A stretch of 64,000 nucleotides of DNA, taken from positions 92,590-156,589 of the forward strand of contig CASEOG010000002.1 of the NCBI GenBank assembly GCA_949289575.1, given 5' to 3'. Below the pieces are notes generated by a model. The model was not told where the DNA came from, searched no databases, and saw nothing but the letters and a program-made list of their open reading frames with translations. Source of the stretch: an uncultured Spirochaetales bacterium. GTDB lineage: Bacteria > Spirochaetota > Spirochaetia > JAFGXN01. Shown here one piece after another: positions 206 to 24,939 of this stretch (its first letter is position 1; each line of letters begins with the position of its first letter). A program made the position numbers and the translations under genes.

Positions 206-233
206 TTGCATTTTCCGCGTGATACCGTATACT
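206..233 (+). promoter_or_regulatory. Putative sigma70-type promoter (TTGCAT-16 nt-TATACT) upstream of the DRTGG/CBS operon
   Basis: -35-like TTGCAT at 206-211 and -10-like TATACT at 228-233 with 16-nt spacing, directly upstream of the first gene of the operon. Confidence 0.35.
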
Positions 234-249
234 GTTAGAGAGGGTGACT

Positions 250-576
250 ATGACATTTAAAGATTTAATCGAAAAAAACAAATGCAGAGTCTTTCATCTG
301 GAATCGGAGCTGGAGAATCAGAAGGTGGTCAATGTGATTGCCGGCGATCTGATGAGCGAAGTTCTGGTCGAGGACGAAGAAAATCTTCTGCTGATAACCT
401 CTCTCAACAGCGAACAGGTTCTCAATACCGCCAATATTGTCGATGCGGCCTGCGTGCTTCTGGTCAACGGAAAAACGCCTCAGGCACCGATGATTAAAAT
501 GGCGGAAAATTTCGGCATCTCTCTTTTGTCGACCGACCTGCCGATGTTCGAGGCGTGTAAGTCCATCGAAAACTGA
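250..576 (+). CDS. DRTGG domain-containing protein
   Basis: ORF 244..576. ATG at 250 is preceded by GAGAGGG. The ~110 aa sequence pattern is typical of standalone DRTGG proteins that accompany CBS-domain proteins. Confidence 0.6.
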   Translation: MTFKDLIEKNKCRVFHLESELENQKVVNVIAGDLMSEVLVEDEENLLLITSLNSEQVLNTANIVDAACVLLVNGKTPQAPMIKMAENFGISLLSTDLPMFEACKSIEN

Positions 577-1565
577 TGAGAACCATTCCGTTCTCGGAAG
601 GCGAATCGCCGCTTGTCCTTGTCGACCTGATTCATAGCACCCGCGTCAGGGATGTGGTGCAAAGCGGCTACTGCACCGCATTAAAATCCGATACGCTTTA
701 CGATATTCAGGTGATGATGAAGGAACGCCACGTCGGCGGTGTGCTGATTACCGACAAAACCGGCCGCCGCCTTTTGGGCATTCTGACTGTTGCCAATATT
801 ATGAAAGCGTTTGAAGACGGAACCATTCAGGAAACGGCCGAACACCACATGACCAAAACGGTGGTGACGCTCGACGGCGAGATGCCGCTGTCGTTTGCCG
901 TCGAAATGTTCGATAAATATTCGTTTAACATGCTGCCGGTTCTCAATGACGAGAAACTGATTGCCGGTGTGATTACACCGCGCGATATCATCATGTATCT
1001 GCTTTCGAGCATGAACGAGGAGGTGGCAAAGTTGGAAGAGAGTGTCAAACAGGCGCAGTCGTTAATCGATAAAACCGCCGGGGCCGACCTCGACGGCTTT
1101 GCTCAGAACAAAAGCCGTGTTTTACGTTATGTCACCATCCGCAACGATTTTAACACTGCCGGGAAAATTTCCAACGAAATCAAAACGGTGCTGAAGGAGA
1201 TGGGCATCGACAAAAAAATCATCCGCCGCATTTCCGTGGCGGCCTACGAACTGGAAATCAATCAGGTGGTGCACTCTTACGGCGGCGAAATGATTTTTAT
1301 CATTACCCCCGAAAAGGTGGAGATTCTGGCGCACGACAAAGGCCCCGGCATCGAGGATGTCGATAAGGCGATGCAGGAAGGCTTTTCCACGGCGACCGAT
1401 TGGGTCCGTTCGCTCGGCTTCGGAGCGGGGATGGGGCTGCCGAACTCCAAACGGGTTTCCGATCTGTTTATCATCAATTCGGCGAAAGGGCAGCCGACCG
1501 ATGTGCGGGCGGTCATTTTTCTCGACGAAAAGAAGAAGGAGGAAGAGAATCGTGAAAGTCTCTGA
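576..1565 (+). CDS. CBS-pair domain protein fused to a GHKL/HATPase_c-type anti-sigma-regulatory-factor-like serine kinase domain
   Basis: N-terminal CBS pair (GILTVANIMKAF… and GVITPRDIIMYLL). C-terminal region with GHKL-like G-boxes (DKGPGI, GFGAGMGL) resembling RsbW/SpoIIAB-type kinases. ATG overlaps the upstream stop (TGATG). Confidence 0.65.
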   Translation: MRTIPFSEGESPLVLVDLIHSTRVRDVVQSGYCTALKSDTLYDIQVMMKERHVGGVLITDKTGRRLLGILTVANIMKAFEDGTIQETAEHHMTKTVVTLDGEMPLSFAVEMFDKYSFNMLPVLNDEKLIAGVITPRDIIMYLLSSMNEEVAKLEESVKQAQSLIDKTAGADLDGFAQNKSRVLRYVTIRNDFNTAGKISNEIKTVLKEMGIDKKIIRRISVAAYELEINQVVHSYGGEMIFIITPEKVEILAHDKGPGIEDVDKAMQEGFSTATDWVRSLGFGAGMGLPNSKRVSDLFIINSAKGQPTDVRAVIFLDEKKKEEENRESL

Positions 1566-1881
1566 TCTGAAAACCAAACTGGCTTACGAAGAGGTGTGTG
1601 CGGGCAATCCCGATGCCGAGATTCGTGCCGGCTACACATCCGATTTGTTGAGCGATGTGATGGGGAACGCTCTCGACGATTCTGTGCTGGTGACGATTCA
1701 GGCACATAAAAACACGGTGGCGGTTGCCACGCTGGCCGGGATTGCGGCGGTGGTGATCTGCAATAACCGCGAAGTGCCGGCCGATATGGCCGAAGCGGCT
1801 GCCGACGAAGAGGTGGCGGTTTACCGGACAACCAAAAATCAGTTCACCGTTTCGTGCGAAATCGGAGCGCTGCTGGACTAG
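1552..1881 (+). CDS. DRTGG domain-containing protein (second copy)
   Basis: GTG at 1552 is in frame within ORF 1357..1881 and preceded by AGGAGGAAG. Product VKVSDLKTKLAYEEV…VTIQAHKNTVAVATLAGIAAVVI is paralogous in pattern to the 250-576 gene. It overlaps the upstream gene end. Confidence 0.55.
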   Translation: MKVSDLKTKLAYEEVCAGNPDAEIRAGYTSDLLSDVMGNALDDSVLVTIQAHKNTVAVATLAGIAAVVICNNREVPADMAEAAADEEVAVYRTTKNQFTVSCEIGALLD

Positions 1882-1904
1882 TTGAGTCAAAACGGAATCG
1901 TTTC

Positions 1905-2621
1905 GTGAAAGCCGATCTTCATATCCATTCCTGTTTGAGTCCTTGCGGAGACTGGGAGATGTCGCCTCTCGCCATTGCGGCGCGCGGCATAGAGGAAGGG
2001 TTGGATATGATGGCGCTTTCCGATCATAATGCGGTCGGCAATTTGCCGGCTTTTTTTTGTGCCTGCGAAGCGGCCGGCATTGTCCCTGTCGGCGGTATCG
2101 AGGTGACCTCCGAAGAAGAGGCGCATGTGCTCTGCCTCTTTCCCGACTTGGAAAAAGCGACGGAGTTCGGAGCCTGGATTCACGATCATCTGCCCGATAT
2201 TCCCAACGACCCCGAACAGTTCGGCGATCAGGTGGCGGTCGACGAAAACGAAGAGGTGCTTTACGAAGAGCCGAAGCTGCTCATTTCGGCAGTTTCGCTC
2301 AATCTGGATGAGATTCTGACAAAAACACACGCGATGGGCGGTCTTTACATACCGGCCCATGTCGACAAACCCCGTTTCAGCCTGACGTCTCAGCTCGGTT
2401 TTATTCCGAAAATGGATTACGATGCGCTGGAGGTGGTCGATTTCAATGCACGGCTGCTGGTCAAAAAGGCGGTGAGAATCGGCAATTCCGATGCCCATTA
2501 TCTGTCGGATGTCGGCAAACGGTTTACCGTTTACGAGACGGAAGAGGCATCGTTCGAGGCGTTGCGTGACTGCCTTCACCGCGGTGCGCTGCTGCCGGGC
2601 AGCCGTCCCTACCGCTTTTAA
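1905..2621 (+). CDS. PHP-domain phosphoesterase
   Basis: N-terminal VKADLHIHSCLSPCGD and SDHNAVG metal-binding motifs of PHP (polymerase/histidinol phosphatase) domains. GTG at 1905 is in frame in ORF 1854..2621 and overlaps the upstream gene. Confidence 0.75.
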   Translation: MKADLHIHSCLSPCGDWEMSPLAIAARGIEEGLDMMALSDHNAVGNLPAFFCACEAAGIVPVGGIEVTSEEEAHVLCLFPDLEKATEFGAWIHDHLPDIPNDPEQFGDQVAVDENEEVLYEEPKLLISAVSLNLDEILTKTHAMGGLYIPAHVDKPRFSLTSQLGFIPKMDYDALEVVDFNARLLVKKAVRIGNSDAHYLSDVGKRFTVYETEEASFEALRDCLHRGALLPGSRPYRF

Positions 2622-2693: not shown

Positions 2694-3203
2694 TTACCGC
2701 CCGCCGCCGGAATCTGCTTTTCCGGAAGAAGCCGCGTCGGAATCGTTATCGGCCGCCGCCGGTTCGCTAAAGCAGCCCTGAGCGCAGCCGGCGCATTCCG
2801 GCGGCACAAAACCGTCGACGACGGCGGTGACAGTCGGCCGAAAGCGGCCGCTTTTTTTGAGAAGCCACAGAACGGCGGTCATCGCGGCCGCGGCCGCAGC
2901 CAGCCCCGCCAAGACGGCGGCGGCAACGGCGTTCGGAAAAAGGGCTTCGATACCGAGATAGACCGCCAAAAAAATCAGCAGCGGCAGAATGAAAATCAGA
3001 AACGAAGAGAAAATCGAGCGGCCGGTCGGCAGCAGAAGCCGGACCGCGTCACCCGGTTTCGGCATTACCCCTTCGGCAATCTCGGCCTCAAACTCGTGCG
3101 GTTTCGGCGCAAAAATCCGGCTGCCGCCGCAACCGCCCGGCTTCGGCATGCGCAGAAACGCGCGTCGGCCGTCGACGGAAACGACAAAAGCGGTGGTCAG
3201 CAT
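2694..3203 (-). CDS. RseC/MucC-like (SoxR-reducing system) membrane protein
   Basis: N-terminal xFVVSVDGRRAFLRMPKPGGCGGS motif typical of RseC-family proteins, followed by two TM helices. It overlaps the upstream YmdB-like gene by 7 nt. Confidence 0.5.
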   Translation of the reverse strand: MLTTAFVVSVDGRRAFLRMPKPGGCGGSRIFAPKPHEFEAEIAEGVMPKPGDAVRLLLPTGRSIFSSFLIFILPLLIFLAVYLGIEALFPNAVAAAVLAGLAAAAAAMTAVLWLLKKSGRFRPTVTAVVDGFVPPECAGCAQGCFSEPAAADNDSDAASSGKADSGGGR

Positions 3204-4021
3204 TCGTCGGCCTCGCGGTCGCTGCTCTCGGCTTCGGCAACCGTGACCGGTTTGCGGATGATTTCGGCCGAAAGACAGCGGTTGCCTTCGATTTCGAAAA
3301 GAGCCCCCTGAATCTCGGTGCCGGCGGCGGTTTCGCGGGAGCGGGAGGGAATCCCGGTTAAAAACTTGTCGATTTCGGTTTTCGGCAGGAAGCCGCCGAC
3401 CGACTGAAGACTGCCGCAGCGGCCGGTGTCGGTAATACGGCCGGTGCCTCCGGCCAAAACTTCGGCATCGGCGGTCAGCGCTTTCGAGTGGGTGCCGGCG
3501 ACGACGGCCGCTTTCCCGTCGAGGAAGCAGGCCATCGCCTGTTTTTCGGCCGTTGTGGCGGCATGAAATTCGACCAGAATCGTATCGTTATCTTTCAGTT
3601 TCTCGAGAAGATAATTCATCGTATGAAACGGATTGTTGAGATGCATGCGGGTAAAACCGTTTTGCCCCAGCAGTGAAATCACGGCGATCTTCTGTCCGTT
3701 GATTTCCGTCAGCCGGTAACCGCGTCCCGGAACCTCGGGCGGAAAATTGGCGGGGCGCAGCAGAAAGGCCGACTTGCCCATCAGCTCCGTCAGATCTTTC
3801 TTGAAAAATCCTTTTTCGCCGACCGTCACGACATCGACTCCCAATTTGCGCAGATAGAGGGCGTGGTTTTTCCCCAAACCGAAACCGCCGGTGGTTCCCT
3901 CCGCATTGGCGACCACCAGATCGATCTTCTCTTCCTGCCGGAACGAGGGCAGAAACTTTTTGACCGCCGTCAGACCGGCGCGGCCGACGATCTCTCCCAA
4001 AAACAACACTTTCAAGGACAA
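3197..4021 (-). CDS. ymdB: YmdB-family metallophosphoesterase (TIGR00282-like, 2',3'-cyclic-nucleotide phosphodiesterase family)
   Basis: LKVLFLGEIVGRAGL and DLVVANAEGTTGGFG motifs. The probable start is TTG at 4021 with an AAGGAG RBS 6 nt upstream. The ORF-track start at 4087 is likely an over-extension. Confidence 0.7.
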   Translation of the reverse strand: MSLKVLFLGEIVGRAGLTAVKKFLPSFRQEEKIDLVVANAEGTTGGFGLGKNHALYLRKLGVDVVTVGEKGFFKKDLTELMGKSAFLLRPANFPPEVPGRGYRLTEINGQKIAVISLLGQNGFTRMHLNNPFHTMNYLLEKLKDNDTILVEFHAATTAEKQAMACFLDGKAAVVAGTHSKALTADAEVLAGGTGRITDTGRCGSLQSVGGFLPKTEIDKFLTGIPSRSRETAAGTEIQGALFEIEGNRCLSAEIIRKPVTVAEAESSDREADEC

Positions 4022-4036
4022 AACGGACTCCTTCTC

Positions 4037-4066
4037 TTGATAGGAATTTCTTATCTGTAGTATAAT
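4037..4066 (+). promoter_or_regulatory. Putative sigma70 promoter (TTGATA-18 nt-TATAAT) for the NusG-domain-II/Gx operon
   Basis: Hexamers read directly at 4037-4042 and 4061-4066. The ATG at 4077 lies 10 nt downstream. Confidence 0.4.
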
Positions 4067-4076
4067 ACAAACGCTC

Positions 4077-4439
4077 ATGAAAATCAATTTACCGGACGCG
4101 GGAATCGCCTCCGTTGTTCTGATCCTGATTCTGACCGCCGCTTTTTTTCTCTACCGCCCGGACGGCTCTCCCCGTTATCTGCTGATTACGACGGCCGACG
4201 GAACGGAAGTGTATCCGCTCGATCAAAACCGGGTTTGGGAACGGACGGACGAAAAGGGAACGGTTCGGGTGGAGATTCGCGACGGAACGGCTGCTTTTAC
4301 GGATTCGTACTGTTCGGGACGCGACTGTATCCGTACCGGAAATATCGTGGGGCGAAGCGGGTTTGCCGCCTGTCTGCCGGCACGGGTGCGGATCGAGACC
4401 GCGGGAGGAGAGAGCCATGCCGATGCGACCGCTTACTGA
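4077..4439 (+). CDS. NusG domain II-containing (DUF1312) protein
   Basis: N-terminal TM helix. The C-terminal block VRVEIRDGTAAFTDSYCSGRDCIRTGNIVGRSGFAACLPARVRIE matches the NusG-domain-II family signature (CPdkiCvkxGxI…CLP). Confidence 0.7.
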   Translation: MKINLPDAGIASVVLILILTAAFFLYRPDGSPRYLLITTADGTEVYPLDQNRVWERTDEKGTVRVEIRDGTAAFTDSYCSGRDCIRTGNIVGRSGFAACLPARVRIETAGGESHADATAY

Positions 4440-5550
4440 CCGTGCGGCGCGGCGGCGCGCCGCGATTTTTACCGCCGCTTTTTCCGTTTATCTGGGAGCG
4501 GTCGAGACGGTTCTGCCTCATCCGATTCCGTTTCTGCATTACGGGTTGGGCAATATTCCGTTGCTGATTGCCGTACCGCAGCTGCCTTTCGGCTGGTTTC
4601 TGGCGGCGGTTGCCGTCAAACTGCTCGGGCAGGGGCTGCTCGGCGGACTGCTGCTTTCGCCGCTGATGGCGGTTTCCGCAGCCGGGTCGCTGACGGCCGC
4701 TTTGGCGATGAAGGGGTTTTACCGCCTTTTCGGCCGCTTCTGTACGCTGACCGGGGTCAGTGTGCTGGCGGCCTTTGTGTCCGATGCGGTGCGGCTGGCG
4801 GCGGCGGCTCTGTTTCTCGGTTCGGCCGGGGCCGCGGCGGTGGCGCTGCCTTTTTTTCTCTGCGGCTGGGGCTGTTCTCTGCTGACGGGGGCGGCCGCCC
4901 GCCGCATGCTGCCGCACTGTCCGTTGGCGGATGTGCCGGCGGCCGCGGGCGGTGCGTTGCGGCGGCCGGCGGAAGCACGGGTTTCCGTTCCGCGGAATTC
5001 CGTTCGCAGCCGTTTGGGTTCCGTTTTGCGGTCGGTGCCGTTTGCGGCGGCCGTTGCGGGAACGCTGTCCGGCAGCGCGGCGCTTTGTCTGCTGCTGTTT
5101 GCGGCGACGGCGGTGACGGCGGCGGTCTGCCGGCTGCGCAACCGGTGGGGGATGACGGCGAGTGCATTCGTTTGCATTGTTCTGTTTGCATTGATGGCGC
5201 CGGACGGGAAGCTGCTGGCGGAATGGGGACCGTTGCGGATAACGGCCGGTGCGCTCGAGGCCGGTTTGTACCGGGCCGCTTCGTTTTGTGCGCTGGTTTT
5301 GGCGTCGCGGTTGGCGCTGATGCGCGGTGTGCCCGCGTTTGTGAGGCGGTTTCGGGCGGCGGGTGAGTTTTTTGTCTATTTCGAGGCGTTTTGGGCGCTT
5401 TCGGTTGATGCCGGGCGGATTTTGTCCCGTCCCTACCTGAAAGAGGTGAGCGGTGTATTGGCGGCCGGTTCGCCGGCCGGTGCCGGTGCGGCTGCCGGTA
5501 ACGGTGCGGTTACCGGTTCGAAGGCGGAAGCGGAAGCGTCGAGACGGTAA
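4417..5550 (+). CDS. Gx transporter family membrane protein with a long Ala/Gly-rich C-terminal extension
   Basis: Polytopic membrane protein immediately following and overlapping the NusG-domain-II gene, which is the canonical pairing. ATG at 4417 lies inside ORF 4363..5550. The C-terminal half is low complexity (Ala/Gly/Arg-rich). Confidence 0.5.
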   Translation: MPMRPLTDRAARRRAAIFTAAFSVYLGAVETVLPHPIPFLHYGLGNIPLLIAVPQLPFGWFLAAVAVKLLGQGLLGGLLLSPLMAVSAAGSLTAALAMKGFYRLFGRFCTLTGVSVLAAFVSDAVRLAAAALFLGSAGAAAVALPFFLCGWGCSLLTGAAARRMLPHCPLADVPAAAGGALRRPAEARVSVPRNSVRSRLGSVLRSVPFAAAVAGTLSGSAALCLLLFAATAVTAAVCRLRNRWGMTASAFVCIVLFALMAPDGKLLAEWGPLRITAGALEAGLYRAASFCALVLASRLALMRGVPAFVRRFRAAGEFFVYFEAFWALSVDAGRILSRPYLKEVSGVLAAGSPAGAGAAAGNGAVTGSKAEAEASRR

Positions 5551-6535
5551 ACGGGCTGTCGGCGGTCGGGGAGAAGGCGCCGGCCAGGTTGCCGGTGACG
5601 ATCAGCCGGTTGTCCCGTGTTATCCATATCACGCCGACGTCGGGGTTGCGCCGCTGCCATTCGATTCCTTTTGTTTCTCCCATCACGAAGAGGGCGGTCG
5701 AAAGGGCGTCGGTTTCGGCGCCGCTGCGTTGCGAGACGACGGTCACCGAACGCAGGCCGCTGTCGGCCGGTTTCCCGGTCGCCGGGTCGAGAATATGGTG
5801 GTATTTGACGCCGTTTTCGTAAAAGAATTTCTGATAATCGCCCGAGGTGGAAAGGCTCCAGTCTCCCGAAAGGGTGAGGGTGGCGGCTTCGGCGGGGCCG
5901 ACGGTTAGCGGAGAGCGGATCGAGATGATCCACGGCGTTCCGTCCGGTTTGGTGCCGACGGTTTGAATATTGCCGCCCAGGTCGATGAGAGCCGTTGCGC
6001 CCGCCTCTTCACAGATTTTTTTCACCGCATCCGAAGCGTATCCTTTGCCGACGGCGCCGAAATCGAAGGCGCACTGCCGGCTTTTCAGGGTGACGGTGTG
6101 CCGCTCGGAGTCGTAGACGGCGGCCGAAAGCCGCGCCGCCGGTAACAGCCGGGCAATCTCCTCGTCTGCCGGCAGCCGCGGTGCTTCGCCGGAAAAGCCC
6201 CACAACGCAGTCAGCCGCCCCAAAACGGGGGAAAAGGCGCCGTCGGTTTCGGCGGCGGTTTTCAGCGAAACCGCAATCAGGTCGCCCGTAAGCGGAGAAA
6301 CCGTCTGCTGCCGGCCGGCATTGACGGCCGATACTTCGCTTTGCGGATCGACGGCACTGATTTTCCGTTCGATTTCCCGAATGGCCTCAAAGCAGTTACC
6401 GGCAACGGCTGTTTCGGACTTCCCGTAAAATCTGACCGTGCAGACGGTTCCCATCAGCCATTCGGTGTATGCCGGACTGCCGAACGGGCAGCCTGTCAGC
6501 ACGGCGGCGCAAAGGGTCAGCAGAATTTTTTTCAT
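5510..6535 (-). CDS. apbE: FAD:protein FMN transferase (ApbE family) lipoprotein
   Basis: Lipoprotein signal (LTGC), FDFGAVGKGYASD and SGDYQKFF…HHILDPATGKP motifs of ApbE. Confidence 0.85.
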   Translation of the reverse strand: MKKILLTLCAAVLTGCPFGSPAYTEWLMGTVCTVRFYGKSETAVAGNCFEAIREIERKISAVDPQSEVSAVNAGRQQTVSPLTGDLIAVSLKTAAETDGAFSPVLGRLTALWGFSGEAPRLPADEEIARLLPAARLSAAVYDSERHTVTLKSRQCAFDFGAVGKGYASDAVKKICEEAGATALIDLGGNIQTVGTKPDGTPWIISIRSPLTVGPAEAATLTLSGDWSLSTSGDYQKFFYENGVKYHHILDPATGKPADSGLRSVTVVSQRSGAETDALSTALFVMGETKGIEWQRRNPDVGVIWITRDNRLIVTGNLAGAFSPTADSPFTVSTLPLPPSNR

Positions 6536-6541
6536 GTGCGG

Positions 6542-8440
6542 TTACAGTGCGTACCGTTCGGACGCTTCTCCGATTTCGTTCAGCGTCTGCCGGGAGTTGT
6601 TCAGATCCCGAATCATCGATTCGACCGATTTGTTCAGGCGCTCCGTCATCTCCTTTTCGGTGGCGAAGAGCTGCTGCATCCGGTCGGAAAGATCGAGAAT
6701 CAGGGTGATAGTCTCTTCGACATTGATAGCCGCTTCTTTCTGTGTCTGGAACTGTTCTTTGATATTCCGGACCGAAGAGACAACCGATTCGATGGCGGTC
6801 ATTGTGTCGCGGGCCGCCTCTTCTTCTTCGTTCATGGCGTCGGAGATTGTGGCAATCAGGTCGCTGTTTTCACCGATTCCTTTTCGGATGCCTTCAAAGG
6901 TTTTGGTAATCGAAGTGATTGTCTGATTTCCGATCTGTATCCATTCCGTCATTTCGCCGATGTGGTTTTCGATTTTTTTGGCACTTTTTGTCGAGGCATC
7001 GGCAAGAGCGCGCACGCTTTGGGCAACCAGCGCAAATCCCGATCCGGACGCACCGGCATGGGCCGCTTCGATAGAGGCGTTCATGGAAAGCAGGTTTGTC
7101 TGTCCCGCAATCCGCTGAATAACAGCCAGAATTTCGGAAACCGATTGAGCCGCATCCTGAATCTCTTCGATCGCTTTGCGCGCTTCTTCAATGGCTTTGT
7201 TTCCGGTCGCACTGTAATTCTTCAGCTTGTCGGACAATTGGGCCGCCGTTCGGATGGTCTGGATAATTCCGGCAATGGAGGAGGACATCTGACCGATAGA
7301 GACAGAGGTCTGTTCGACCATTTCTTCCTGAGCCGCAATCTGTTCTTCCATCATTTTGGCCGTGGTGTTCAGATTGTGGACGTTTTTGTCGGAACGGGAG
7401 AGAAAGGTGATCTGACTGTTCGATTCCGCCGATTCGCAGGAGGCTGCGGTGATTTCCGCAAGCGGTGTTTTGATATTTTCGTAAATCACTCCGGTTTTGT
7501 CGAGAGACTCATGCAGGGCGGCTGTTTCGCTCCGGAACTCTTCGGCTACTGTCTGCGTATTTTCCGTCAAAAGATTGATGGCTTCGCATAAATCGCCGAA
7601 CTCATCGAGTGTAATGATGTTCATTCGGGAGAGGCCGTGGCCGGGAGTTTCGATTTCGTTGAGCAGTGCGACGGTCCGTCCGACTTTCTGGTACTGTAAA
7701 TTGCGGAAAACGCGGAGAAACAGAAAAAGCAGAGTCAGAATGAGGATTCCGGAAGCCGCTCCCGTCAGGGCAAAAAGGGCCGGGTCGGCTTCGGCGGGAT
7801 TGATGATGGCTCTTTCGGCAAAAAAGGAGCTTCCCGACAAAGTAAATGTGGCCGTAATCAGAAAGGCCTGAAGCAGACCGAACATCAGGACAAATCCGAT
7901 ACTGAAATTTTTTCTGACATGAAGATGGGAATATTTCTTCACCGTCGAAATATCGGATATCTTTCCGATACCGGCTTTGAAAAAGAACAGGATAAGAAAA
8001 ACGCTGATTCCCCATAAAATCAGGGAGATGACCATATCCATTACAAACCGCGAGACAAAAATGAAAAGGGTTTCCGGTTCGGGTGTAAAAAAGAATCCGG
8101 TTATTCGCGGCAGAACAATCATGATAAAAGAGGTCAGCCAGATGCAGAGCGTCAGTCCCTTCATCGATTTCAGGAAAGTCATCAGTTTCAGATCTTCCGG
8201 CATCGGATTGGTGTCGGTACAGGTTTCCCCGATGCGCCGCGAAAAGTAAACGGAGGGAATCAGAAAAATCAGATACCCCGACACGGCAATCAGCGTGCTT
8301 TGTATCAGGTGCGGCCACGGAAGGATGTGTGTATTTCGAAATGTCATGAGAAAAAAACTGAGTTCGTTAAATATAAAAATAAAGAACAGAAGAGGGGAAA
8401 CAGAGCGTAAATAAAGTGCGGTCATTTTGCTGCGACTCAT
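6542..8440 (-). CDS. Methyl-accepting chemotaxis protein with a polytopic (multi-TM) N-terminal sensor region
   Basis: Highly conserved MCP signalling-domain hairpin ([31 protein letters not shown]). N-terminus has about 6-8 predicted TM helices. Confidence 0.85.
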
Positions 8441-10323
8441 TGATTTTCCTCCTGAAGGGAATTGTGTTGGAAGATTTGGACAGACTGAAGCAGGTCTCCG
8501 GCGGTTGCTCTGTCCGATTCGATATTGACAATCGCGCTGCGGGCCAGTTCCGATGCTTTTTCGAGTTCTTTTTGCTGTCTCCCGATTGTGGTGCCGATGA
8601 GATCCGCATGGGCCACGATTTCATTCATAATTTTTTTGGCGTTTTGTGTATACTGGTTCTGTTTCTCGGCAAACGAAGAAATCTGTTCGACCGATTTGAC
8701 GATGGCGAAAGTCGATTCCAGAGTCGATTGTGTCGATTTTTGCTGGGAGTTCATGCTGTCCGCAATCCGGTTCATCAGTTCGAAGTTCTCTCCGATACCG
8801 TTGACAATATCGTTGAAAGCGTTTCCGGCGGCCGTAATCGCTTCGACGCCGTGGTTGACCTTTTCGATCATCATTTCGATGTGGGTTTCGATTTCTTTTG
8901 CGTTGCGGTTGGAAAGGCTCGAAAGGGATCGAACCTCGTCGGCCACAATGGCAAATCCTCGTCCGGTATCACCCGCATGGGCCGCTTCGATCGAAGCGTT
9001 CATCGAGAGGAGGTTTGTCTGTTTGGCAATTTTCTGAATCGACCGGAGAATCTGCTGTATGTCGAGAGAGGATGTCTGAATCGATTTAATCGTGTCGGTT
9101 GTCCGGCTCAGGATGCGGTGTCCCGATTCGCTGCTCTCTTTCAGCATTGTGGAAACGATGTTGGCCTGGCGGGCCATTTCGGCAATCGAAGCCACGGCGG
9201 AACTGATTTCGGAAACCGAAGCCGAACTCTGCTGTATCGACTGGTTTTGGAAAGAAACCTGCTGAATCATATCCATGGCACCGGAAACCAGCGAGTTGAC
9301 TTCGGTATCGGTCAGGTCGATAACTTCTTTCTGACTCAGGGAGGATTCGCGAATCTGATCTAACGATTCGGAGATGGTGTTGATGGTCTCGACGGCGCTT
9401 TCTCCTTTGCGGACCAGTTCCTCTTTTTCTTCGATAAGCTGCGTCGATTCTTTTTCCAGACGGAAAAGGGAATTCTGAAGACGGTTCATAAATCCGTTGA
9501 TTTTGTCTTCGAGTTCGATCATATCGGCGGTAAAGCAGTATGCGAGACGCGGAGAGAAATCCCGTGTTTTTTTCCGGTCGAGAACCCAGCCCGACAGTTT
9601 TCCCGTTTGGCGGCGTAAATCGAGGCAGAGGGTAAAAACAGGAATACAGGTCAGAATGAGGGCCGCCAGTGTGCCGGTGACAGCCTGATTCAGAAAAAAT
9701 CCGAATCCGTACAGAGGATCGATGATTTCCTGCATCGGGATGAAGAAGGTTACGGCAGCCAGCGGCGTAAACCAGATCAGGGCCGTTCCCGACAGGAAAA
9801 ACCTGTAGAGCCATTTGAGGGAGGATTCGAATCCTTTGGTTTTCTTATGAGGGGTCGTTTCGTTTTCGTCCGTTGTGCGGTATTTGCAGATTTTGGGAAT
9901 ATTGTAAAGATTCGAGTAATACATTAAAAGACCGCTCATACAGGCCAGGATCGGCATTGACGGGAACGGTACGGGCCCGTCGCCGGAGACGGTCATCGCT
10001 GTTTCGGCAATCACGGCAAACAGAGGGTAAAGAATCAGGTGAACGGAGAGATTGACGCGGTAGAGAACCTTTCTGAAGGCAGTGTGTCTTTGGGCGTCGT
10101 TTCGGGAGCCTTTGCCTCCGGATGTAAAGGCCGTGACGGCGGGGAGCATCAGGAGCAGAGCCGCGCTGCAGACAATTACGGCAAAAATAACCGTTGTTGA
10201 CAGGAAGGAGGCCGATTCGCCGACCGAAGCTGTTTCGTAGAGTCTGCCGAAAAAAGAATAGAAAGATGTGCCGAGAATGGCGGTCAGTACAAAATGGACG
10301 GTAAACTTAAAGTATGTACTCAT
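8437..10323 (-). CDS. Methyl-accepting chemotaxis protein (second, tandem) with a multi-TM N-terminal region
   Basis: MCP signature [31 protein letters not shown]. Overlaps the downstream MCP by 4 nt. Confidence 0.85.
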
Positions 10324-10388: not shown

Positions 10389-10460
10389 AGCCACTCATGG
10401 GATTTGAACCCACGACCTACGCATTACGAGTGCGTTGCTCTACCCCTGAGCTAAAGTGGC
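10389..10460 (-). tRNA. tRNA-Thr (anticodon CGT)
   Basis: Reverse complement GCCACTTTAGCTCAGGGGTAGAGCAACGCACTCGTAATGCGTAGGTCGTGGGTTCAAATCCCATGAGTGGCT folds as a cloverleaf: 7-bp acceptor, D-arm GCTC/GAGC, anticodon stem ACGCA/TGCGT with loop CTCGTAA, T-arm GTGGG-TTCAAAT-CCCAT. CCA is not encoded. Confidence 0.85.
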
Positions 10461-13071: not shown

Positions 13072-14580
13072 ATGGGCGACGTCAAAGTAAGAATTTCCAA
13101 AAGAGGACCGTTTCAGCTGGAACTGAAGCTGACTTATCCGATTGCGCGGAAGAAAAAAGTCGAAACCAATATGTATGATTTCACCGGCTATTTTTTTATT
13201 CCGTCCCAGTTGGGAATCAATCCTTCCACATATTCTTCCGAAGACTTTTTTGATGATTATTTTTCTTACACGCGTTTCGGTATTCTCGATTTTTCGCTGG
13301 ACGATTTGCTTAACCATCATATTAAAACCAACCCTCTCTGGAGAATCGATTCTTTTGTTTCCGAAGATCACTTCGAGAAAGGGCAGAATCGCGAAGCGAT
13401 CATTTACGAGCTGAAAACATTTTACAATATTTTTCATGACAGAATGGATGTTCTCAAATCGGAATTCCGTAAACTGAAGCACAAGGTGGACGAAGATGAT
13501 TATCATCCTATTGAGATTTTTACCAACTACCGCGATAAGATTACAAAAGTGTTTGGGGTATTCCGCAAATACAGGGATTTTTTCTACGACGAACGTCAGG
13601 ATGAAGAACTGAAATGGAGCTACCGCTGGGTTGATGAAGGAATCAGTCTCGATTACGAAAAACTGCTCTGGTACGTTTACGATACGGCGCAAATCGGAAG
13701 GGAAGAAGAGCTGGTGTCGATTTGCGCGCACGAGATCGAAGAAAATATCGATTACAGAAAATCGCAGGAATATCTTCATTATACATATAAATACAACAAC
13801 AAAAAAAACGAGTCGTTTATCTTCCGTGAACACAGTATCCGCAAATGGGCGGAGTTGAATCTGCACATGTCGCGAACCGATTCCCATAATCCGAAACAGG
13901 TCAGTCTGCTTCTGATTTCCGTTTCAACCGGAATAGCGATGTTTATTTTTCTGTTGCTGACGTTGCTGATTGTCAACAAGTTTATGAATCAGCCGGCATT
14001 GTGGATTCTCAGCGGTGTTCTTGCCTATGTGCTGAGGGACCAGATTAAAGACAACTTAAAAGAATATTCCAAAAAGATGTCGCCGATGTTCGCGGCCGAC
14101 CGGGAACAGCATCTGATTGACCCGAAGAGCCGCAGACGCAGCGGATTCAGCCGTGAATGGATGTCGTTTACCCGAATGGACCGTCTGCCGGCTCCGATTA
14201 GGGAATTGCGGGAACGCGATAAAAACAAACTGGATAAGTATCTGCTGTCCGAGAACATTATCCGCTTCGAAAAACGGACCAAATTCCGGAGCCGCCGTCT
14301 GACGCAGAACCATCCGCGCCTTCCGAGTGTCACCGATATACTCCGGTTTGATTTGCGGCGCTGTTTTTATAAAATGGATACGGCTGTCGAGGATTTGTTT
14401 GTGCTGAATGACGACAACCGCCTGGAAACGGTTCAGGCAAAGCGTGTTTATCACATCGGCCTGATTTTTTCGATTACCGAAAAAGAAAGCGGGATGAAAC
14501 AGTCGGTTTACAATGATTACCGGTTCAGAATTGTCGCTTCCGGAGAAGAAATCCTGAGAATCGAAAGAGTCAAAGGGTAA
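13072..14580 (+). CDS. Hypothetical membrane protein (502 aa, two central TM helices), AT-rich orphan
   Basis: Long ORF with a GGAGAGGA RBS inside the end of the upstream gene and 2-nt spacing. No recognisable domain. Two hydrophobic helices (LLLISVSTGIAMFIFLLLTLLIV, ALWILSGVLAYVL). Composition is visibly more AT-rich than flanking genes. Confidence 0.55.
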   Translation: MGDVKVRISKRGPFQLELKLTYPIARKKKVETNMYDFTGYFFIPSQLGINPSTYSSEDFFDDYFSYTRFGILDFSLDDLLNHHIKTNPLWRIDSFVSEDHFEKGQNREAIIYELKTFYNIFHDRMDVLKSEFRKLKHKVDEDDYHPIEIFTNYRDKITKVFGVFRKYRDFFYDERQDEELKWSYRWVDEGISLDYEKLLWYVYDTAQIGREEELVSICAHEIEENIDYRKSQEYLHYTYKYNNKKNESFIFREHSIRKWAELNLHMSRTDSHNPKQVSLLLISVSTGIAMFIFLLLTLLIVNKFMNQPALWILSGVLAYVLRDQIKDNLKEYSKKMSPMFAADREQHLIDPKSRRRSGFSREWMSFTRMDRLPAPIRELRERDKNKLDKYLLSENIIRFEKRTKFRSRRLTQNHPRLPSVTDILRFDLRRCFYKMDTAVEDLFVLNDDNRLETVQAKRVYHIGLIFSITEKESGMKQSVYNDYRFRIVASGEEILRIERVKG

Positions 14581-17964: not shown

Positions 17965-20025
17965 GTGAGAAAAGCTGTTATTTTATTTTTAATTATCTCC
18001 GGTCTCTTTATGGCGTGCGGTGAATTTACGGTTATCGAGGAAACGACGGCACGGAATGCCGGTTTCGTCACCCTTTCCGCTTTTGAAGAGGGGCGCATCC
18101 TGAAACCGGGAGAAAAAATAAAATACGGATTTTCGTTTACGGATGAGGCTGCGAATATTGTTTCGTACCGGATTTCGGTTGTCGATTTGACGGCGGATGA
18201 AACGGTCTTTTCGGGCGAACCGATCCGGCTGCGGGATGCGGCGGAAGAAACCGGAGCCGATACGGAAACATCTTCCGACGGAGACGGAAATCTTTCCGGT
18301 GTGCCGGCTGAGGATCTTTCTTCGGCGGAATCTTTGCCGAACGGAACGGCCGGAGAAGATTACAACGGTGTTGTTCCGGTTCCGGAGACATTGACGGACG
18401 GTTATTACGCTTTTTTCTTTTCTTTTTCGGATTCGCAGGGGAAGGAGGCCGGTTCCGTCAGCGCATCTTTCTTTGTCTCGTCGGCACAGCTGAAAGTTAA
18501 TTCGCTGGGTTCGTACCCCGCGGTGATTTATCCCGGCGGCGAGAGCCTTCTGTACACGGATATAACGGCTCCCGAAGGCTTCGATTCGGATGTGGTGTGG
18601 ACCTGCAACGGCGTCGAGATTTACCGGACCCGTCTGAAAAATATGGCACCTGCGGTCAAATGGCGTGCGCCTGCGGATAAGACGGCAGTCGAAATGACGG
18701 TCGGGGTTTATCCGTGCGATCCTCCCGCGGGACAGACTTTTTCGTTTCCGCCTCCCGTATCGCTTTCTTCGACAATTTTTATATCGGTCAGCCAGCCGGT
18801 TGAAAGCGGTGATTTCCGTCCCGATTCCGAATACGATCTGCTGTTCCATTTCCGCGGAGAGATGAATGATTACTCTCCGTATGCGAAGGGTCGGAAAATT
18901 TCGGTTAAGGGGAATCCTCAGCTGGCTTTCGATTCGAATGTATTCGGATATTCGTTCGGCGACGGTGCCGCTGTTGAGGTAGCTGTCGATGACGAATCGG
19001 TTTTGGGTTACGAAGGGTCGGCTTTTGTTCCGGCGACGGTTGATTTCCGTCTGAATCTGAAATCGCAGGCGTCCGGCAGAATCTTTTCGGTCAGGGATTC
19101 GGCGGACAAAACCGTTTTTTCGCTCTCGAAGAACGCCGGCAGACTGCAGCTGACAGCGGAACTTTCATCCGTTCCTCTGACACAGTCTTTGAATCTTACC
19201 GACTATGTGCTGACCGATTTAACCAGATTGAGTTTTTCCGTTTTTCAGGATACGGTCGGAAAACAGTTTTCTTTCGTCTGGGGACTTGACGGATATTCCG
19301 TATCACGCACGGTCTTCGGTTACGATGCGTTGCGGCGTACTGCGGGAAAAACGTTAACGATCGGCGGCGATAACGGTTATACGGGCGTGATAGACGAACT
19401 CGGTATTTTCCGGATAGGTGACAGGGTTTCCGATTCTCTCTTTGCGGAAGCGGTCCGGAAAAGATTCGGCGGTGACTGTCTGCTGGCGGACGACTTTGTC
19501 GGAGTCTCCTGTATTTCTTCTTACAGAAAATTCCCGTCGGTTCAGCCTTCCGGTATTATAACCGTTGCCGGTGATGATGTTCTCGAAACGGTTGCGTTCG
19601 AAGTTCCGAACGACAGCTTCTCGGTTCAGATTGTCGTGGCGGAGGACCGCTTCTCCGGCGGGTCCGTCGATATGAAGGCGGTGACACTGGATGACAGTCG
19701 GGAGTGGGCTGCGGAAGCGCTGTTTGCCTCTCTTGATCTGAAAAACAGCCGGTTTACTTCGGAGGCCGGGGAATATGAGTATTCGGCAAACGGTTCGATT
19801 TTCGGATTGTACCGTTTGGATTTTCGTAAGACACCCGCAGGCTGGGTTTGTGAATTCGGCGGGAAGGAATTCCCTGTCAATATCCCGAACGGTGCCGCTG
19901 TAGCTGTCTCGGCTTTTGCCGCAACGGGTGAATCGTTTTCTATCGACAGTCTTGTCCTGTTGGGCTCGCTTTCGGGACAGGCAGATCTTTATAAAACACC
20001 TGTTTCACTGAGCTGGCAGCCGTAA
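17965..20025 (+). CDS. Large hypothetical lipoprotein (686 aa)
   Basis: Lipobox LFMAC at the N-terminus. No recognisable catalytic motifs. Ser/Thr/Gly/Asp-rich. Confidence 0.55.
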   Translation: MRKAVILFLIISGLFMACGEFTVIEETTARNAGFVTLSAFEEGRILKPGEKIKYGFSFTDEAANIVSYRISVVDLTADETVFSGEPIRLRDAAEETGADTETSSDGDGNLSGVPAEDLSSAESLPNGTAGEDYNGVVPVPETLTDGYYAFFFSFSDSQGKEAGSVSASFFVSSAQLKVNSLGSYPAVIYPGGESLLYTDITAPEGFDSDVVWTCNGVEIYRTRLKNMAPAVKWRAPADKTAVEMTVGVYPCDPPAGQTFSFPPPVSLSSTIFISVSQPVESGDFRPDSEYDLLFHFRGEMNDYSPYAKGRKISVKGNPQLAFDSNVFGYSFGDGAAVEVAVDDESVLGYEGSAFVPATVDFRLNLKSQASGRIFSVRDSADKTVFSLSKNAGRLQLTAELSSVPLTQSLNLTDYVLTDLTRLSFSVFQDTVGKQFSFVWGLDGYSVSRTVFGYDALRRTAGKTLTIGGDNGYTGVIDELGIFRIGDRVSDSLFAEAVRKRFGGDCLLADDFVGVSCISSYRKFPSVQPSGIITVAGDDVLETVAFEVPNDSFSVQIVVAEDRFSGGSVDMKAVTLDDSREWAAEALFASLDLKNSRFTSEAGEYEYSANGSIFGLYRLDFRKTPAGWVCEFGGKEFPVNIPNGAAVAVSAFAATGESFSIDSLVLLGSLSGQADLYKTPVSLSWQP

Positions 20026-24929: not shown

Positions 24930-24939
24930 GGAGGTTAAG

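Follow-up and report, generated by a model that had tools for sequence, protein, structure and literature searches.

The operon at positions 250-2621 of the window (the whole 64-kb stretch of DNA that was analysed) is, on balance, probably a sensor-swapped regulatory module in which a CBS pair takes the place of an H-cluster sensor and which controls hydrogen/redox metabolism with HydABC as default target. It codes for two small DRTGG-fold proteins (g1, g3), a CBS-linked kinase of the SpoIIAB/RsbW class (g2) and a PHP-family enzyme (g4). Modules of the same composition lie beside or inside electron-bifurcating [FeFe] hydrogenase genes in many anaerobes, and the module is therefore a good candidate for a regulator of hydrogen/redox metabolism.

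Gene organization and expression signals

The ORF listing of the window places the four genes, tightly packed on the + strand (Table 1), where the earlier note had described an operon, which the ORFs and their overlaps confirm. Its domain assignments (two DRTGG proteins, CBS plus GHKL kinase, PHP) also hold in Pfam, NCBIfam, hhalign and structure matches. The coupling that it proposed is likewise supported, the genes being tightly coupled. The g1 stop and g2 start share the sequence TGATG, with a 1-nt overlap at 576, and the GTG start of g3 at 1552 lies 14 nt within g2 with an AGGAGG just 5' of it. The alternative g4 start GTG 1854 would give a 28-nt overlap with g3 and a product of 255 aa, but GTG 1905, 24 nt past the g3 stop, is the more likely start because the homologues start a few residues from the DLHxH motif and the NCBI model has 238 aa. 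The promoter-like element upstream of g1 is preceded by an A-rich tract. It is not listed by a stricter consensus promoter scanner because its -35 hexamer agrees at only 3/6 positions.

Table 1. Features of the operon (positions in the window).
Feature	Position	Strand	Remarks
Promoter-like element, TTGCAT-16 nt-TATACT	206-233	+	Sigma-70-like; read from the sequence, putative function
Shine-Dalgarno sequence, GAGAGGG	238-244	+	5' of the g1 ATG at 250
g1, DRTGG-fold small protein, upstream type (D1), 108 aa	250-576	+	Profile and paralogy evidence
g2, CBS pair and SpoIIAB-like GHKL kinase domain, 329 aa	576-1565	+	Pfam, NCBIfam
g3, DRTGG-fold small protein, downstream type (D2), 109 aa, GTG start	1552-1881	+	Model, Foldseek
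g4, PHP-family metal-dependent phosphoesterase, 238 aa, probable start	1905-2621	+	Pfam PHP, PHP_C

The CBS-linked kinase g2

The g2 protein features an amino terminal CBS pair (two CBS motifs, Pfam E 2.5e-18; about nt 606-1070 with a custom profile) and a carboxyl terminal kinase domain (about nt 1119-1553 by profile match). The latter is a GHKL domain of the SpoIIAB/RsbW type with intact ATP-binding boxes and is a predicted kinase. It matches HATPase_c_2 (E 3.1e-6, 27.7 bits versus a cut-off of 27.4) and NCBIfam SpoIIAB (E 3.3e-9), while the best solved match of its profile is SpoIIAB (1L0O/1TIL, 1.5e-10), RsbW (6M36) being found at 2.5e-3. Residues E48 and N52 of the N box, D77-G79-P80-G81 of the G1 box (DxGPG) and G104-F-G-A-G108 of the G2 box (GFGAGMGL) are invariant in 13 diverse domains whose alignment shows 39-56% identity. 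In the model of g2 (pLDDT 79.7) the ATP lid (268-292) is disordered and a single long linker helix (aa 135-167) connects the CBS pair to the kinase. Identity as a two-component sensor histidine kinase was rejected: g2 has no match to HisKA in Pfam or NCBIfam, there is no DHp/HisKA domain and the CBS-kinase connector is a single helix.

The two CBS motifs are GILTVAN (68-74) and GVITPRD (131-137). G68, G131 and D137 are invariant in the family alignment and T134 and D74 nearly so. Solely from these conserved G-h-h-T-x-x-D/N (ribose-phosphate) motifs we infer that the pair may bind an adenosine-containing nucleotide ligand. Its fold matches ligand-bound CBS pairs in structure comparison, with AcuB, OpuCA and DarB among the neighbours and with AMP/ADP, Ap4A, c-di-AMP and cGAMP among the ligands with which neighbours were solved.

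The DRTGG proteins g1 and g3

Proteins g1 and g3 are paralogs (hhalign probability 99.8%, E 6.9e-29). Both match Pfam DRTGG (PF07085) below the gathering score of 25.2 (g1, E 4.4e-5, 23.7 bits; g3, E 2e-4, 21.6 bits), and g3 matches Hpr_kinase_N below cut-off (E 6.4e-4). Within a set of 22 g3-type proteins, Pfam DRTGG matches 20 at E <= 0.01 and Hpr_kinase_N matches 16. The g1 and g3 profiles match the DRTGG domain of CBS-pyrophosphatase (3L2B), AF_1212 (2IOJ) and the amino terminal domain of HPr kinase. For the D1 profile, 3L2B is found at 3.8e-5 and 2IOJ, aligned over its full length, at 1e-3. The best Foldseek match of the g3 AlphaFold model (pLDDT 97.7) is 2IOJ ('Pfam DRTGG'; TM 0.84, rmsd 2.1 A), followed by HPrK/P and 3L2B, so that a DRTGG alpha/beta fold is predicted for g3 and its paralog g1. 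A STAS partner, whose lack had been pointed out before, is indeed found neither in g1 and g3 (Pfam, NCBIfam) nor in the Pfam-annotated neighbours of 15 related loci.

The eponymous D-R ... T-G-G residues are absent from both proteins in the alignment to AF_1212. The TGGDRSD of AF_1212 aligns with LLITSLNSEQ in g1 and LVTIQAHKN in g3, its LILTGN aligns with LLVNGK and VVICNNR, respectively, and only the Thr and an upstream M-S are kept. The g1 protein carries a D-L-M-S-E-V-L motif, and in its family M35, S36 and L39 are invariant and D33, T60 and K75 near-invariant. In the g3 family D31, L33, S34, T48 and A57 are invariant across phyla. The g3 protein is the best conserved of the module, with most of its listed homologues 55-70% identical (up to 96% for the few closest listed) versus ~45% for the kinase. 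In the model the conserved residues map to the loops that follow beta-strands 2 and 3, and to the starts of the next helices. Note that the conserved Ser is also present in AF_1212 (GAMS), a canonical DRTGG protein, and is therefore no specific pointer to a phospho-acceptor. Several g3 homologues bear the NCBI product name 'iron-sulfur binding hydrogenase'.

Conservation of the module

Species-representative genomes were scanned with the kinase-domain alignment, yielding at least 600 matches; 80 loci were kept. They belong to Spirochaetota, Kiritimatiellia/Lentisphaerae, Bacillota, Bacteroidota, Chloroflexota, Fidelibacterota, Desulfobacterota, Synergistota and Zixibacteria. Dozens of species-level genomes, from at least 9 phyla, share the order DRTGG, kinase, DRTGG, PHP, and the arrangement is therefore not due to chance; the conserved neighbourhood that the earlier note posited spans Spirochaetota, Bacillota and well beyond. 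The order is identical in loci L006, L008 and most of L009-L088, and is kept in unrelated contexts in L093/L094 (87% kinase identity) and L095 (51%).

An exhaustive HMMER search with g2 finds its kinase domain, 43-50% identical, in proteins of roughly 510-590 aa composed of HATPase_c_2, Fer4, Fe_hyd_lg_C and FeS domains (Pfam). By sequence comparison the g2 kinase has its orthologs among kinases that are joined to, or lie beside, sensory [FeFe]-hydrogenase domains of the HydS-like kind; the HydS-like proteins are assigned here by their Pfam domains. According to counts made from six-frame ORFs with small in-house profiles, HydS-type loci have the upstream DRTGG gene in 35/36 cases, the downstream one in 36/37 and PHP in 36/37; the corresponding figures for CBS-type loci are 17/38, 25/33 and 24/33. 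The four genes are a conserved set in that their order recurs widely, with the correction to the earlier description that CBS-type loci can do without the upstream DRTGG gene. The best 150 representatives include about 52 CBS~kinase proteins, 43 bare kinases and 36 kinase~HydS-like proteins, together with rarer architectures (8 DRTGG~kinase, 1 DRTGG~CBS~kinase and 1 CBS~kinase~DRTGG). The fusions mirror the gene order, which argues for a physical interaction. Some loci also have sigma-54 response regulators and a second HATPase_c protein of roughly 180 aa, so that the circuit could in reality be more elaborate.

Association with HydABC and rex

The HydS-type module adjoins or sits within the hydABC bifurcating-hydrogenase operon in 16 of the 19 loci whose flanks both reach at least 6 kb, and rex is found in 0/39 HydS-type loci. 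The CBS-type module is often co-directional with rex (11/40 loci) and divergent from hydABC. The latter lies within about 10 kb in 10 of 23 CBS-type loci with equally long flanks, being absent nearby in the other 13, and rex, where it adjoins the module, is immediately upstream on the same strand, 41-103 nt away. Chance adjacency within 10 kb is estimated at about 1-3%. The HydS-type arrangement is illustrated by L006 with the order (Pfam) DRTGG, kinase~HydS, DRTGG, PHP, HATPase_c, NuoE, 2Fe-2S protein, NuoF. In L089/L090 one strand codes for HydA, NuoF, a 130-aa protein, HATPase_c and NuoE while the opposite strand codes, divergently, for Rex, DRTGG, CBS~kinase, DRTGG and PHP. L004 and L091 resemble L089 except that a transporter cassette separates rex from the kinase gene and that they lack the upstream DRTGG gene. 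The module genes are embedded within the structural hydrogenase operon in Clostridia.

HATPase_c domains fused to C1 hydrogenases beside group A3 hydrogenases are recorded in PMC11406978. In PMC5037454, PMC11406978 and PMC8163306 the published record is of the kinase-hydrogenase link only, its role being called undetermined. The searchable literature held no assigned function for the neighbourhood, in agreement with the earlier note. The HydABC/rex context and the orthology to HydS-linked kinases, which are the strongest contextual signal, had not been part of that note.

The PHP enzyme g4 and the proposed mechanism

Protein g4 scores above cut-off for both PHP (PF02811, E 1.5e-9) and PHP_C (E 5.8e-6). 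Residues D3, H5, H7, D39, H40, E65, H73, H151, D195 and H197 are invariant across phyla, as is a subfamily-specific S-P-C, as judged on 16 diverse homologues and on about 73 in total, and the metal-ligand set predicted from the sequence is complete. The profile search against the PDB identifies Endonuclease Q (1.4e-13) and the phosphoesterases 9ETK and 3E0F, and further relatives are the 5'-3' exoribonuclease 7UG9, RNase AM, the pAp phosphatase 2YB1, PolC PHP domains, YcdX and histidinol phosphatase. In NCBIfam, g4 matches nucleoside-bisphosphate phosphatase and RNase RNM. CpsB and YwqE, which are PHP protein-tyrosine phosphatases, are absent from the PDB search at E <= 1. In its sequence relationships g4 resembles nucleotide/nucleic-acid phosphodiesterases, not PHP protein phosphatases. 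The phosphorylation/dephosphorylation switch advanced previously is in line with the kinase and phosphoesterase domains but was overstated, the PHP relatives not being protein phosphatases; a switch in which kinase and phosphoesterase act on the DRTGG proteins would be plausible.

The operon would be the CBS-sensor variant of a DRTGG, sensor-kinase, DRTGG, PHP module whose ancestral and commonest genomic partner is HydABC. The ligand of its CBS pair would be one that contains adenosine, namely AMP/ADP/ATP, NAD(H), Ap4A or a cyclic dinucleotide, and the pair would set the activity of the kinase dimer via the long linker helix. The kinase would phosphorylate or sequester one or both DRTGG proteins, in place of the STAS proteins of partner-switching systems. 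The reset would fall to the PHP metalloenzyme, which would either take the modification off again or hydrolyse a nucleotide signal, and the output would tune the expression or activity of hydrogen/redox metabolism, by default HydABC. We suggest only tentatively that this represents an unrecognised partner-switching-type system of anaerobes, where DRTGG stands for STAS and PHP for PP2C, and where input from an exchangeable domain, an H-cluster hydrogenase-like H2 sensor or, in the window, a CBS nucleotide sensor, sets the expression or activity of the bifurcating hydrogenase.

The relatives of g4 in the PDB (EndoQ, 9ETK, 3E0F, 7UG9, 2YB1, PolC; no CpsB/YwqE) and in NCBIfam would also suit a different circuit, centred on a nucleotide signal, which we consider unlikely. 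The PHP enzyme would hydrolyse pAp, a linear or cyclic dinucleotide or Ap4A, or cleave an RNA/DNA end, with the DRTGG proteins and CBS pair as receptors and the GHKL domain as an ATP-dependent conformational switch or anti-sigma-like partner instead of a DRTGG kinase. The ligands of the structural neighbours of the CBS pair, AcuB, OpuCA and DarB being among these neighbours, and the position of the conserved DRTGG residues, which the model suggests to be that of a ligand pocket, are consistent with such a circuit. HydS-type modules, however, have no CBS pair and keep PHP and both DRTGG proteins, and the PHP role therefore cannot hang on a CBS ligand. The catalytic residues of the kinase, among them the N-box Glu that resembles a general base, are moreover invariant, and all HATPase_c_2 proteins characterised so far are, to our knowledge, protein serine kinases.

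The window copy of the module

Profile maps of the 64-kb window reveal no homologues of hydrogenase, NuoE/NuoF, rex or HydS-like proteins, and identical contigs contain no hydrogenase, NuoE/NuoF or rex homologue in the 10 kb upstream. The hydrogenase link of this copy is therefore one of homology and ancestry only. The neighbours are pyrF/pyrE upstream and RseC, YmdB, NusG_II, Hpre_diP_synt_I and ApbE downstream, a context shared by the relative L093/L094, while L095 is an orphan in another context again. The nearest kinase in a rough NJ tree is that of L005, located 4-5 kb from hydABC. No sigma factor or DNA-binding domain is found within the module, and none of the four proteins matches a PADLOC model (anti-phage defence) at E <= 0.01. 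As the module is physically unlinked from any hydrogenase in this genome, it would act in trans or have been re-used for another target.

Complete re-purposing, in which the module would be a stand-alone adenylate/redox kinase switch without a hydrogenase role (serving, for example, flavinylation/Rnf-type redox genes nearby, chemotaxis or pyrimidine metabolism), appears to us improbable. It would account for the lack of hydrogenase and rex in the window, for the orphan context shared with a relative of 87% kinase identity, for L095 and for the 13 unlinked CBS-type loci, but it sits poorly with the proximity of L005 to hydABC. Furthermore, L004 and L091 show that unlinking is possible by simple cassette insertion, and the neighbours of orphan loci differ between lineages, so there is no recurring alternative target. 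A role of the small proteins and PHP in assembly or cofactor handling for the hydrogenase complex rather than in signalling, which the product name of several g3 homologues and the location inside the hydrogenase operon in Clostridia would fit, is very improbable given that g3-type proteins have no invariant cysteine in the alignment across phyla and a predicted DRTGG, not ferredoxin-like, fold, that the module is built around a sensor-kinase with a swapped input domain (H-cluster versus CBS), and that orphan modules occur without a nearby hydrogenase.

Significance

HydABC has a central role in the H2 production of fermenters, of gut and rumen bacteria, of termite spirochaetes and of biofuel strains. 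The sensor-swapped module touches on two questions, namely how putative sensory [FeFe] hydrogenases relay their signal and how electron-bifurcating HydABC is regulated. A conserved gene set is defined (two DRTGG paralogs, a SpoIIAB-like kinase, a PHP enzyme and often a second HATPase_c protein), the C1-linked 'histidine kinase', which has no DHp/HisKA domain, is placed in the serine-kinase class, and the H-cluster sensor is seen to be swapped for a CBS pair in nature. The previously anonymous window operon becomes a candidate energy/redox regulator. If true, partner switching through DRTGG proteins would supply the route, missing so far, by which 'sensory' [FeFe] hydrogenases transduce their signal.

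Comparison with known systems

The amino terminal domain of HPr kinase/phosphorylase is similar to g3 in fold and profile, with 1KO7 and 1KNX among the top structural matches. Unlike the module, HPrK/P is a P-loop kinase to which this domain is fused in cis; we know of no function assigned to the domain. The insert of CBS-pyrophosphatases (CBS-DRTGG-CBS) combines the same two domain types, and the DRTGG profiles of the module match the DRTGG domain of 3L2B/3L31. The earlier statement that CBS and DRTGG form the adenine-nucleotide-binding insert of these enzymes agrees with the abstract of bioRxiv 10.1101/2020.04.07.028951. According to abstracts on that system, its CBS domains bind adenine nucleotides and Ap4A. 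The insert is part of one chain, within a DHH/DHHA2 enzyme, whereas the module has separate proteins alongside a kinase, and its DRTGG proteins, unlike CBS-pyrophosphatases, do not carry the eponymous residues. Identity as a CBS-pyrophosphatase was rejected, there being no DHH domain and the NCBIfam matches being sub-threshold and confined to the CBS or DRTGG parts. In CBS-type loci the gene for Rex, the NADH/NAD+-sensing repressor that controls hydrogenase operons, often adjoins the module, divergent from hydABC; unlike these, the window and the HydS-type loci have no rex.

The SpoIIAB-SpoIIAA-SpoIIE and RsbW-RsbV-RsbU/P systems have a kinase of the same GHKL subclass (HATPase_c_2) as g2 and are likewise encoded in small operons with a kinase, small single-domain proteins and a phosphoesterase. 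They differ in having a STAS protein, a PP2C phosphatase and a sigma factor, all missing from the module; no sigma-factor gene is present in the annotated neighbours of 15 related loci. In the module the small partners have the predicted DRTGG fold, their phosphorylation is putative and the hydrolase is a PHP enzyme. Its kinase also has an amino terminal sensor (CBS or HydS-like), and we know of none on SpoIIAB or RsbW.

A further likeness is to [FeFe] hydrogenases of group C1 ('histidine kinase-linked', putative sensory; HydDB) and to the TamHydS-type gene context. The 'histidine kinase' label of the C1 literature is unsuitable, since a DHp/HisKA domain is absent. In contrast to group C1, g2 has a CBS pair instead of a hydrogenase-like domain and the window copy adjoins no hydrogenase. 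The kinase of that context is orthologous to g2 by sequence (43-50% identity), and the flanking DRTGG and PHP genes are of the same kind and in the same order as in the window.

Operon organization in the window

On sequence grounds, the window operon appears to belong, with its sensor swapped, to a signalling module that is linked to hydrogenase and based on a kinase of the partner-switching type. It consists of four plus-strand ORFs with almost no intergenic space (positions 244-2621), coding for an upstream DRTGG protein (g1), a CBS~kinase (g2), a downstream DRTGG protein (g3) and a PHP phosphoesterase (g4). The four-gene module described in the earlier note was confirmed in its ORFs, overlaps and domains. 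To its proposed g4 start at GTG 1854, overlapping g3 by 28 nt, GTG 1905 is preferred because homologues begin a few residues from the first PHP motif and the NCBI product has 238 aa. A GAGAGGG Shine-Dalgarno sequence lies 5' of g1; the promoter-like site found further upstream was not listed by a stricter promoter scanner. The operon follows the end of a pyrF/pyrE fusion gene and faces a convergent RseC-family gene. Together with the tight packing, these flanks make the four genes look like one self-contained operon.

Features of the module and its surroundings (window positions)
Feature	Position	Strand	Remarks
Promoter-like TTGCAT-16 nt-TATACT	206-233	+	read from the sequence; A-rich tract also 5' of g1
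g1, DRTGG	250-576	+	108 aa; TGA stop overlaps g2 ATG (TGATG)
g2, CBS~kinase	576-1565	+	329 aa; 14-nt overlap with g3 start
g3, DRTGG	1552-1881	+	109 aa; GTG start preceded by AGGAGG
g4, PHP	1905-2621	+	preferred GTG start; 238 aa in near-identical NCBI MAG protein
g4 S-P-C region	about 1926-1943	+	aa 8-13 from 1905 start; homologue alignment
RseC_MucC	2694-3203	-	downstream cluster
YmdB	3197-4087	-	downstream cluster
NusG_II	4077-4439	+	downstream cluster
Hpre_diP_synt_I	4363-5550	+	downstream cluster
ApbE FMN transferase	5510-6535	-	downstream cluster
Two tandem methyl-accepting chemotaxis protein genes	6542-10323	-	632 and 628 aa
tRNA	10389-10460	-	after chemotaxis genes; sole Rfam match in window
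Four long ORFs	13072-14580, 17965-20025, 20040-21560, 27082-29157	+	no Pfam match
Flavoenzyme gene run	21568-26682	+	DAO + BFD-like 2Fe-2S, Pyr_redox_2 + DUF1667, FAD-linked oxidase

The sensor-kinase

Pfam detects CBS in two stretches of g2 (E 2.5e-18) and HATPase_c_2 just above its cut-off (27.7 versus 27.4 bits), while NCBIfam identifies SpoIIAB (E 3.3e-9). An alignment of 13 kinase domains has invariant N (E48, N52), G1 (D77-x-G-P-G) and G2 (G-F-G-A-G-x-G-L) boxes, and its profile retrieves SpoIIAB first (1.5e-10), followed by a histidine-kinase ATP-binding domain, CheA and RsbW. The g2 kinase is thus of the SpoIIAB class with intact ATP-binding residues. The g2 model (pLDDT 79.7) features the CBS pair, a single long helix (aa 135-167), the kinase domain and a disordered ATP lid; neither the model nor the domain checks revealed a DHp/HisKA domain. 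CBS matches dominate the Foldseek search of this model, and the kinase domain was placed by profile search instead. The G-h-h-T-x-x-D/N motifs of the CBS pair are conserved, and among its structural neighbours are proteins whose structures contain AMP/ADP, Ap4A, c-di-AMP or SAM.

The DRTGG proteins

Both g1 (23.7 bits) and g3 (21.6 bits) score under the Pfam DRTGG cut-off of 25.2 bits. Upstream-type and downstream-type proteins yield profiles that are clearly akin (hhalign 99.8%, E 6.9e-29). Each of the two also matches AF_1212 (2IOJ), which is a stand-alone DRTGG protein, as well as the DRTGG domain in the CBS-pyrophosphatase of Clostridium perfringens (3L2B/3L31) and the HPr kinase N-terminal domain. 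Pfam DRTGG is matched by 20 of 22 g3-type proteins, and the AlphaFold model of g3 (pLDDT 97.7) has 2IOJ as best match (TM 0.84, rmsd 2.1 A). Given these profile, Pfam and model matches, assignment of g1 and g3 to the predicted DRTGG fold is sound. The claimed domains, CBS, GHKL kinase and PHP by Pfam/NCBIfam and DRTGG by profiles and the g3 model, are therefore right. In the alignment the module's proteins keep neither the D-R nor the T-G-G that gives the domain its name, and so they form a divergent DRTGG subfamily.

In the model, the D-x-[LM]-S, T and N residues that are invariant in these proteins are located on the loops following strands 2 and 3 and where the next helices begin, a position compatible with a ligand pocket as well as with an acceptor site. 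The serine of D-L-[LM]-S was rejected as evidence for a module-specific phospho-acceptor: a canonical DRTGG protein also has M-S there, so this residue has no power to separate the two alternatives. The NCBI name of several g3-type proteins, "iron-sulfur binding hydrogenase", looks like a misleading legacy of genomic context since the fold is DRTGG and no cysteine is invariant in these proteins across phyla. Weak structural neighbours of the g3 model include pyruvate-kinase C domains. Two related loci code for a PK_C-only (pyruvate-kinase C-terminal) protein of ~180 aa after the PHP gene (L089, 11161-11718; L090, 11244-11789).

Kinase architectures and sensor exchange

An exhaustive HMMER search with g2 yielded full-length CBS-kinase relatives and, with 43-50% identity over the kinase domain alone, proteins of ~140, ~270 and roughly 510-590 aa. 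The large ones tested by Pfam carry HATPase_c_2, Fer4, Fe_hyd_lg_C and FeS; they are kinases fused to a HydS-like putative sensory hydrogenase domain. P0189, one of the ~270-aa proteins tested, has DRTGG fused to the kinase (DRTGG~kinase). The 150 best representatives include about 52 CBS~kinases, 43 bare kinases, 36 kinase~HydS-like proteins, 8 DRTGG~kinases and one each of DRTGG~CBS~kinase and CBS~kinase~DRTGG. These natural DRTGG fusions at either kinase end agree with the gene order. The CBS pair of the window kinase occupies the place of the H-cluster sensor in other lineages. In an NJ tree of kinase domains, which has no support values and serves as a rough guide only, the CBS-kinases of three Chloroflexota/Fidelibacterota loci (L052, L056, L059) nest within the HydS-type clade, apart from the Spirochaetota/PVC CBS clade. 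Their position hints that the CBS sensor may have been acquired more than once.

Conservation of the module and linkage to hydrogenase genes

A scan of one GTDB genome per species with the kinase-domain alignment matched at least 600 stretches, from which 80 loci were kept and mapped with small custom profiles made from annotated loci. They belong to Spirochaetota, Kiritimatiellia/Lentisphaerae, Bacillota, Bacteroidota, Chloroflexota, Fidelibacterota, Desulfobacterota, Synergistota and Zixibacteria, which bears out the neighbourhood conservation claimed in the earlier note, Spirochaetota and Bacillota included. The connection of the module to hydrogenase genes had escaped that note.

Gene content of the kept loci, by kinase sensor
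Gene	HydS-type	CBS-type
Upstream DRTGG	35/36	17/38
Downstream DRTGG	36/37	25/33
PHP	36/37	24/33
hydABC, both flanks at least 6 kb	16/19	10/23
hydABC, any flank	30/39	13/40
rex	0/39	11/40

The genomic linkage of the module to hydABC, which codes for the electron-bifurcating [FeFe] hydrogenase, and to rex is strong; a 20-kb neighbourhood represents at most 1% of these genomes and chance adjacency is estimated at about 1-3%. In many Clostridia the module sits inside the structural operon (NuoE, DRTGG, kinase, HydS, DRTGG, PHP, HATPase_c, 2Fe-2S protein, NuoF, HydA). Pfam gives the order DRTGG, kinase~HydS, DRTGG, PHP, HATPase_c (181 aa), NuoE-like, 2Fe-2S protein, NuoF-like in L006, and DRTGG~kinase, DRTGG, PHP, HATPase_c, response regulator in L008. 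In a recurrent CBS-type layout, one strand carries HydA, NuoF, 2Fe-2S protein, HATPase_c and NuoE, and Rex, DRTGG, CBS~kinase, DRTGG and PHP diverge from it (L019-21, L023, L027, L042, L043, L068); independent Pfam annotation bears it out in L089 and L090. Loci L004 and L091 also have this divergent layout, except that the upstream DRTGG gene is missing and rex is separated from the CBS-kinase gene by a Bmp/ABC nucleoside-transporter and deaminase cassette of roughly 5.5 kb (L004, 2479-7899; L091, 3459-8905). Its insertion shows a route by which the module parts from hydABC. Scanning the hydABC/rex intergenic regions for a Rex box (TTGTGAAnnnnTTCACAA) gave weak matches only (2-4 mismatches), with recurring TGTGA/TCACA half-sites; no Rex-box-like site is evident upstream of g1.

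Other arrangements are found. In the Kiritimatiellia-like L017 and L024, DRTGG and PHP lie on the opposite strand, divergent from DRTGG and CBS~kinase, and several Lentisphaerae, Chloroflexota and Smithella loci retain only DRTGG and CBS~kinase. A DHp-less HATPase_c protein, ~180 aa long in most loci (a shorter, 138-aa relative in L006), repeatedly adjoins a single-domain receiver or a response regulator of the sigma-54-dependent type (L006, 1-2471; L008, 9872-10822; L040; L072). It is also a standard member of hydABC operons, between the NuoE-like and 2Fe-2S genes, and may be a split histidine-kinase catalytic subunit. The addition in some loci of a sigma-54 response regulator and/or second HATPase_c protein suggests additional circuit layers, missing from the window.

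The window copy is an orphan

Custom profiles for HydA, NuoE, NuoF, HydS-like, the 180-aa HATPase_c and Rex gave no match within the 64 kb. In contigs identical to the window, pyrF/pyrE, DUF2147 and restriction-modification genes lie on the upstream side. The context of the window copy recurs in a relative with 87% kinase identity, and a relative with 51% has the four genes in different surroundings; they therefore travel together as a unit. The complete genome of Breznakiella homolactica also carries an orphan locus (L012). The nearest kinase with a long context in the rough NJ tree, that of L005, has hydABC 4-5 kb away.

Directly 3' of the module the window has a redox/flavinylation-flavoured cluster (2694-6535), with synteny preserved in the relative of 87% kinase identity; the L005 module adjoins an Nqr/Rnf-type operon instead. 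Further downstream, the flavoenzyme run looks like a cluster for an anaerobic glycerol-3-phosphate dehydrogenase or a related one, and the four long ORFs (502, 686, 506 and 691 aa) are without a Pfam match at E <= 1e-5.

The PHP enzyme and the proposed mechanism

The two DRTGG paralogs and a PHP enzyme with intact catalytic residues are co-inherited with the kinase. The CBS pair would bind an adenosine-containing ligand, as its conserved motifs and structural neighbours suggest, and the linker helix would couple binding to the kinase. The latter may act on, or bind, the DRTGG proteins where STAS proteins would serve, the PHP enzyme would reset the system, and the output would bear on HydABC or hydrogen/redox metabolism. 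The phosphorylation/dephosphorylation switch put forward in the earlier note is plausible but unproven.

This mechanism is weakest where the PHP enzyme is concerned. Both PHP-family domains are clear in g4 (PHP, E 1.5e-9; PHP_C, E 5.8e-6), and the metal-ligand residues are invariant in 16 diverse homologues and in about 73 in total. The solved relatives of its profile are Endonuclease Q, RNase AM, a pAp phosphatase and PolC PHP domains; the CpsB/YwqE protein phosphatases are not among them, which makes hydrolysis of nucleotides a serious rival role. All homologues in the module's subfamily have an invariant S-P-C after HxH (H-x-H-S-x-L-S-P-C-G), where TrpH-type PHP enzymes have S-D-G; the cysteine may stand in place of the metal-ligand aspartate. 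A defence-system reading, drawn from weak NCBIfam matches (TrlF, Ppl, DS11), was rejected in view of the metabolic context and of PADLOC, which gave no match for the module proteins.

Comparison with known systems

In the searchable literature, papers mentioning DRTGG concern pyrophosphatase, Pta, Ap4A or unrelated topics, and no paper gives a description of the module's DRTGG or PHP components or of its CBS variant. The names given in databases say little or mislead ("CBS domain-containing protein", "hypothetical protein", "iron-sulfur binding hydrogenase"). With this module, the regulation of sensory [FeFe] hydrogenases and of HydABC could be tested on a concrete set of genes, the window copy itself being hydrogenase-unlinked. 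The "histidine kinase-like ATPase" adjoining TamHydS (PMC8163306) fits the same picture. Compared with that hydrogenase-linked HydS context, the window module lacks both the hydrogenase-like sensor and hydABC adjacency. It shares its domain types with the regulatory insert of CBS-pyrophosphatases, but here they are on separate proteins and no pyrophosphatase is present. The module would work like partner-switching modules but without two of their defining features, namely the PP2C phosphatase and the STAS protein; the absence of the latter had been correctly recognized in the earlier note.
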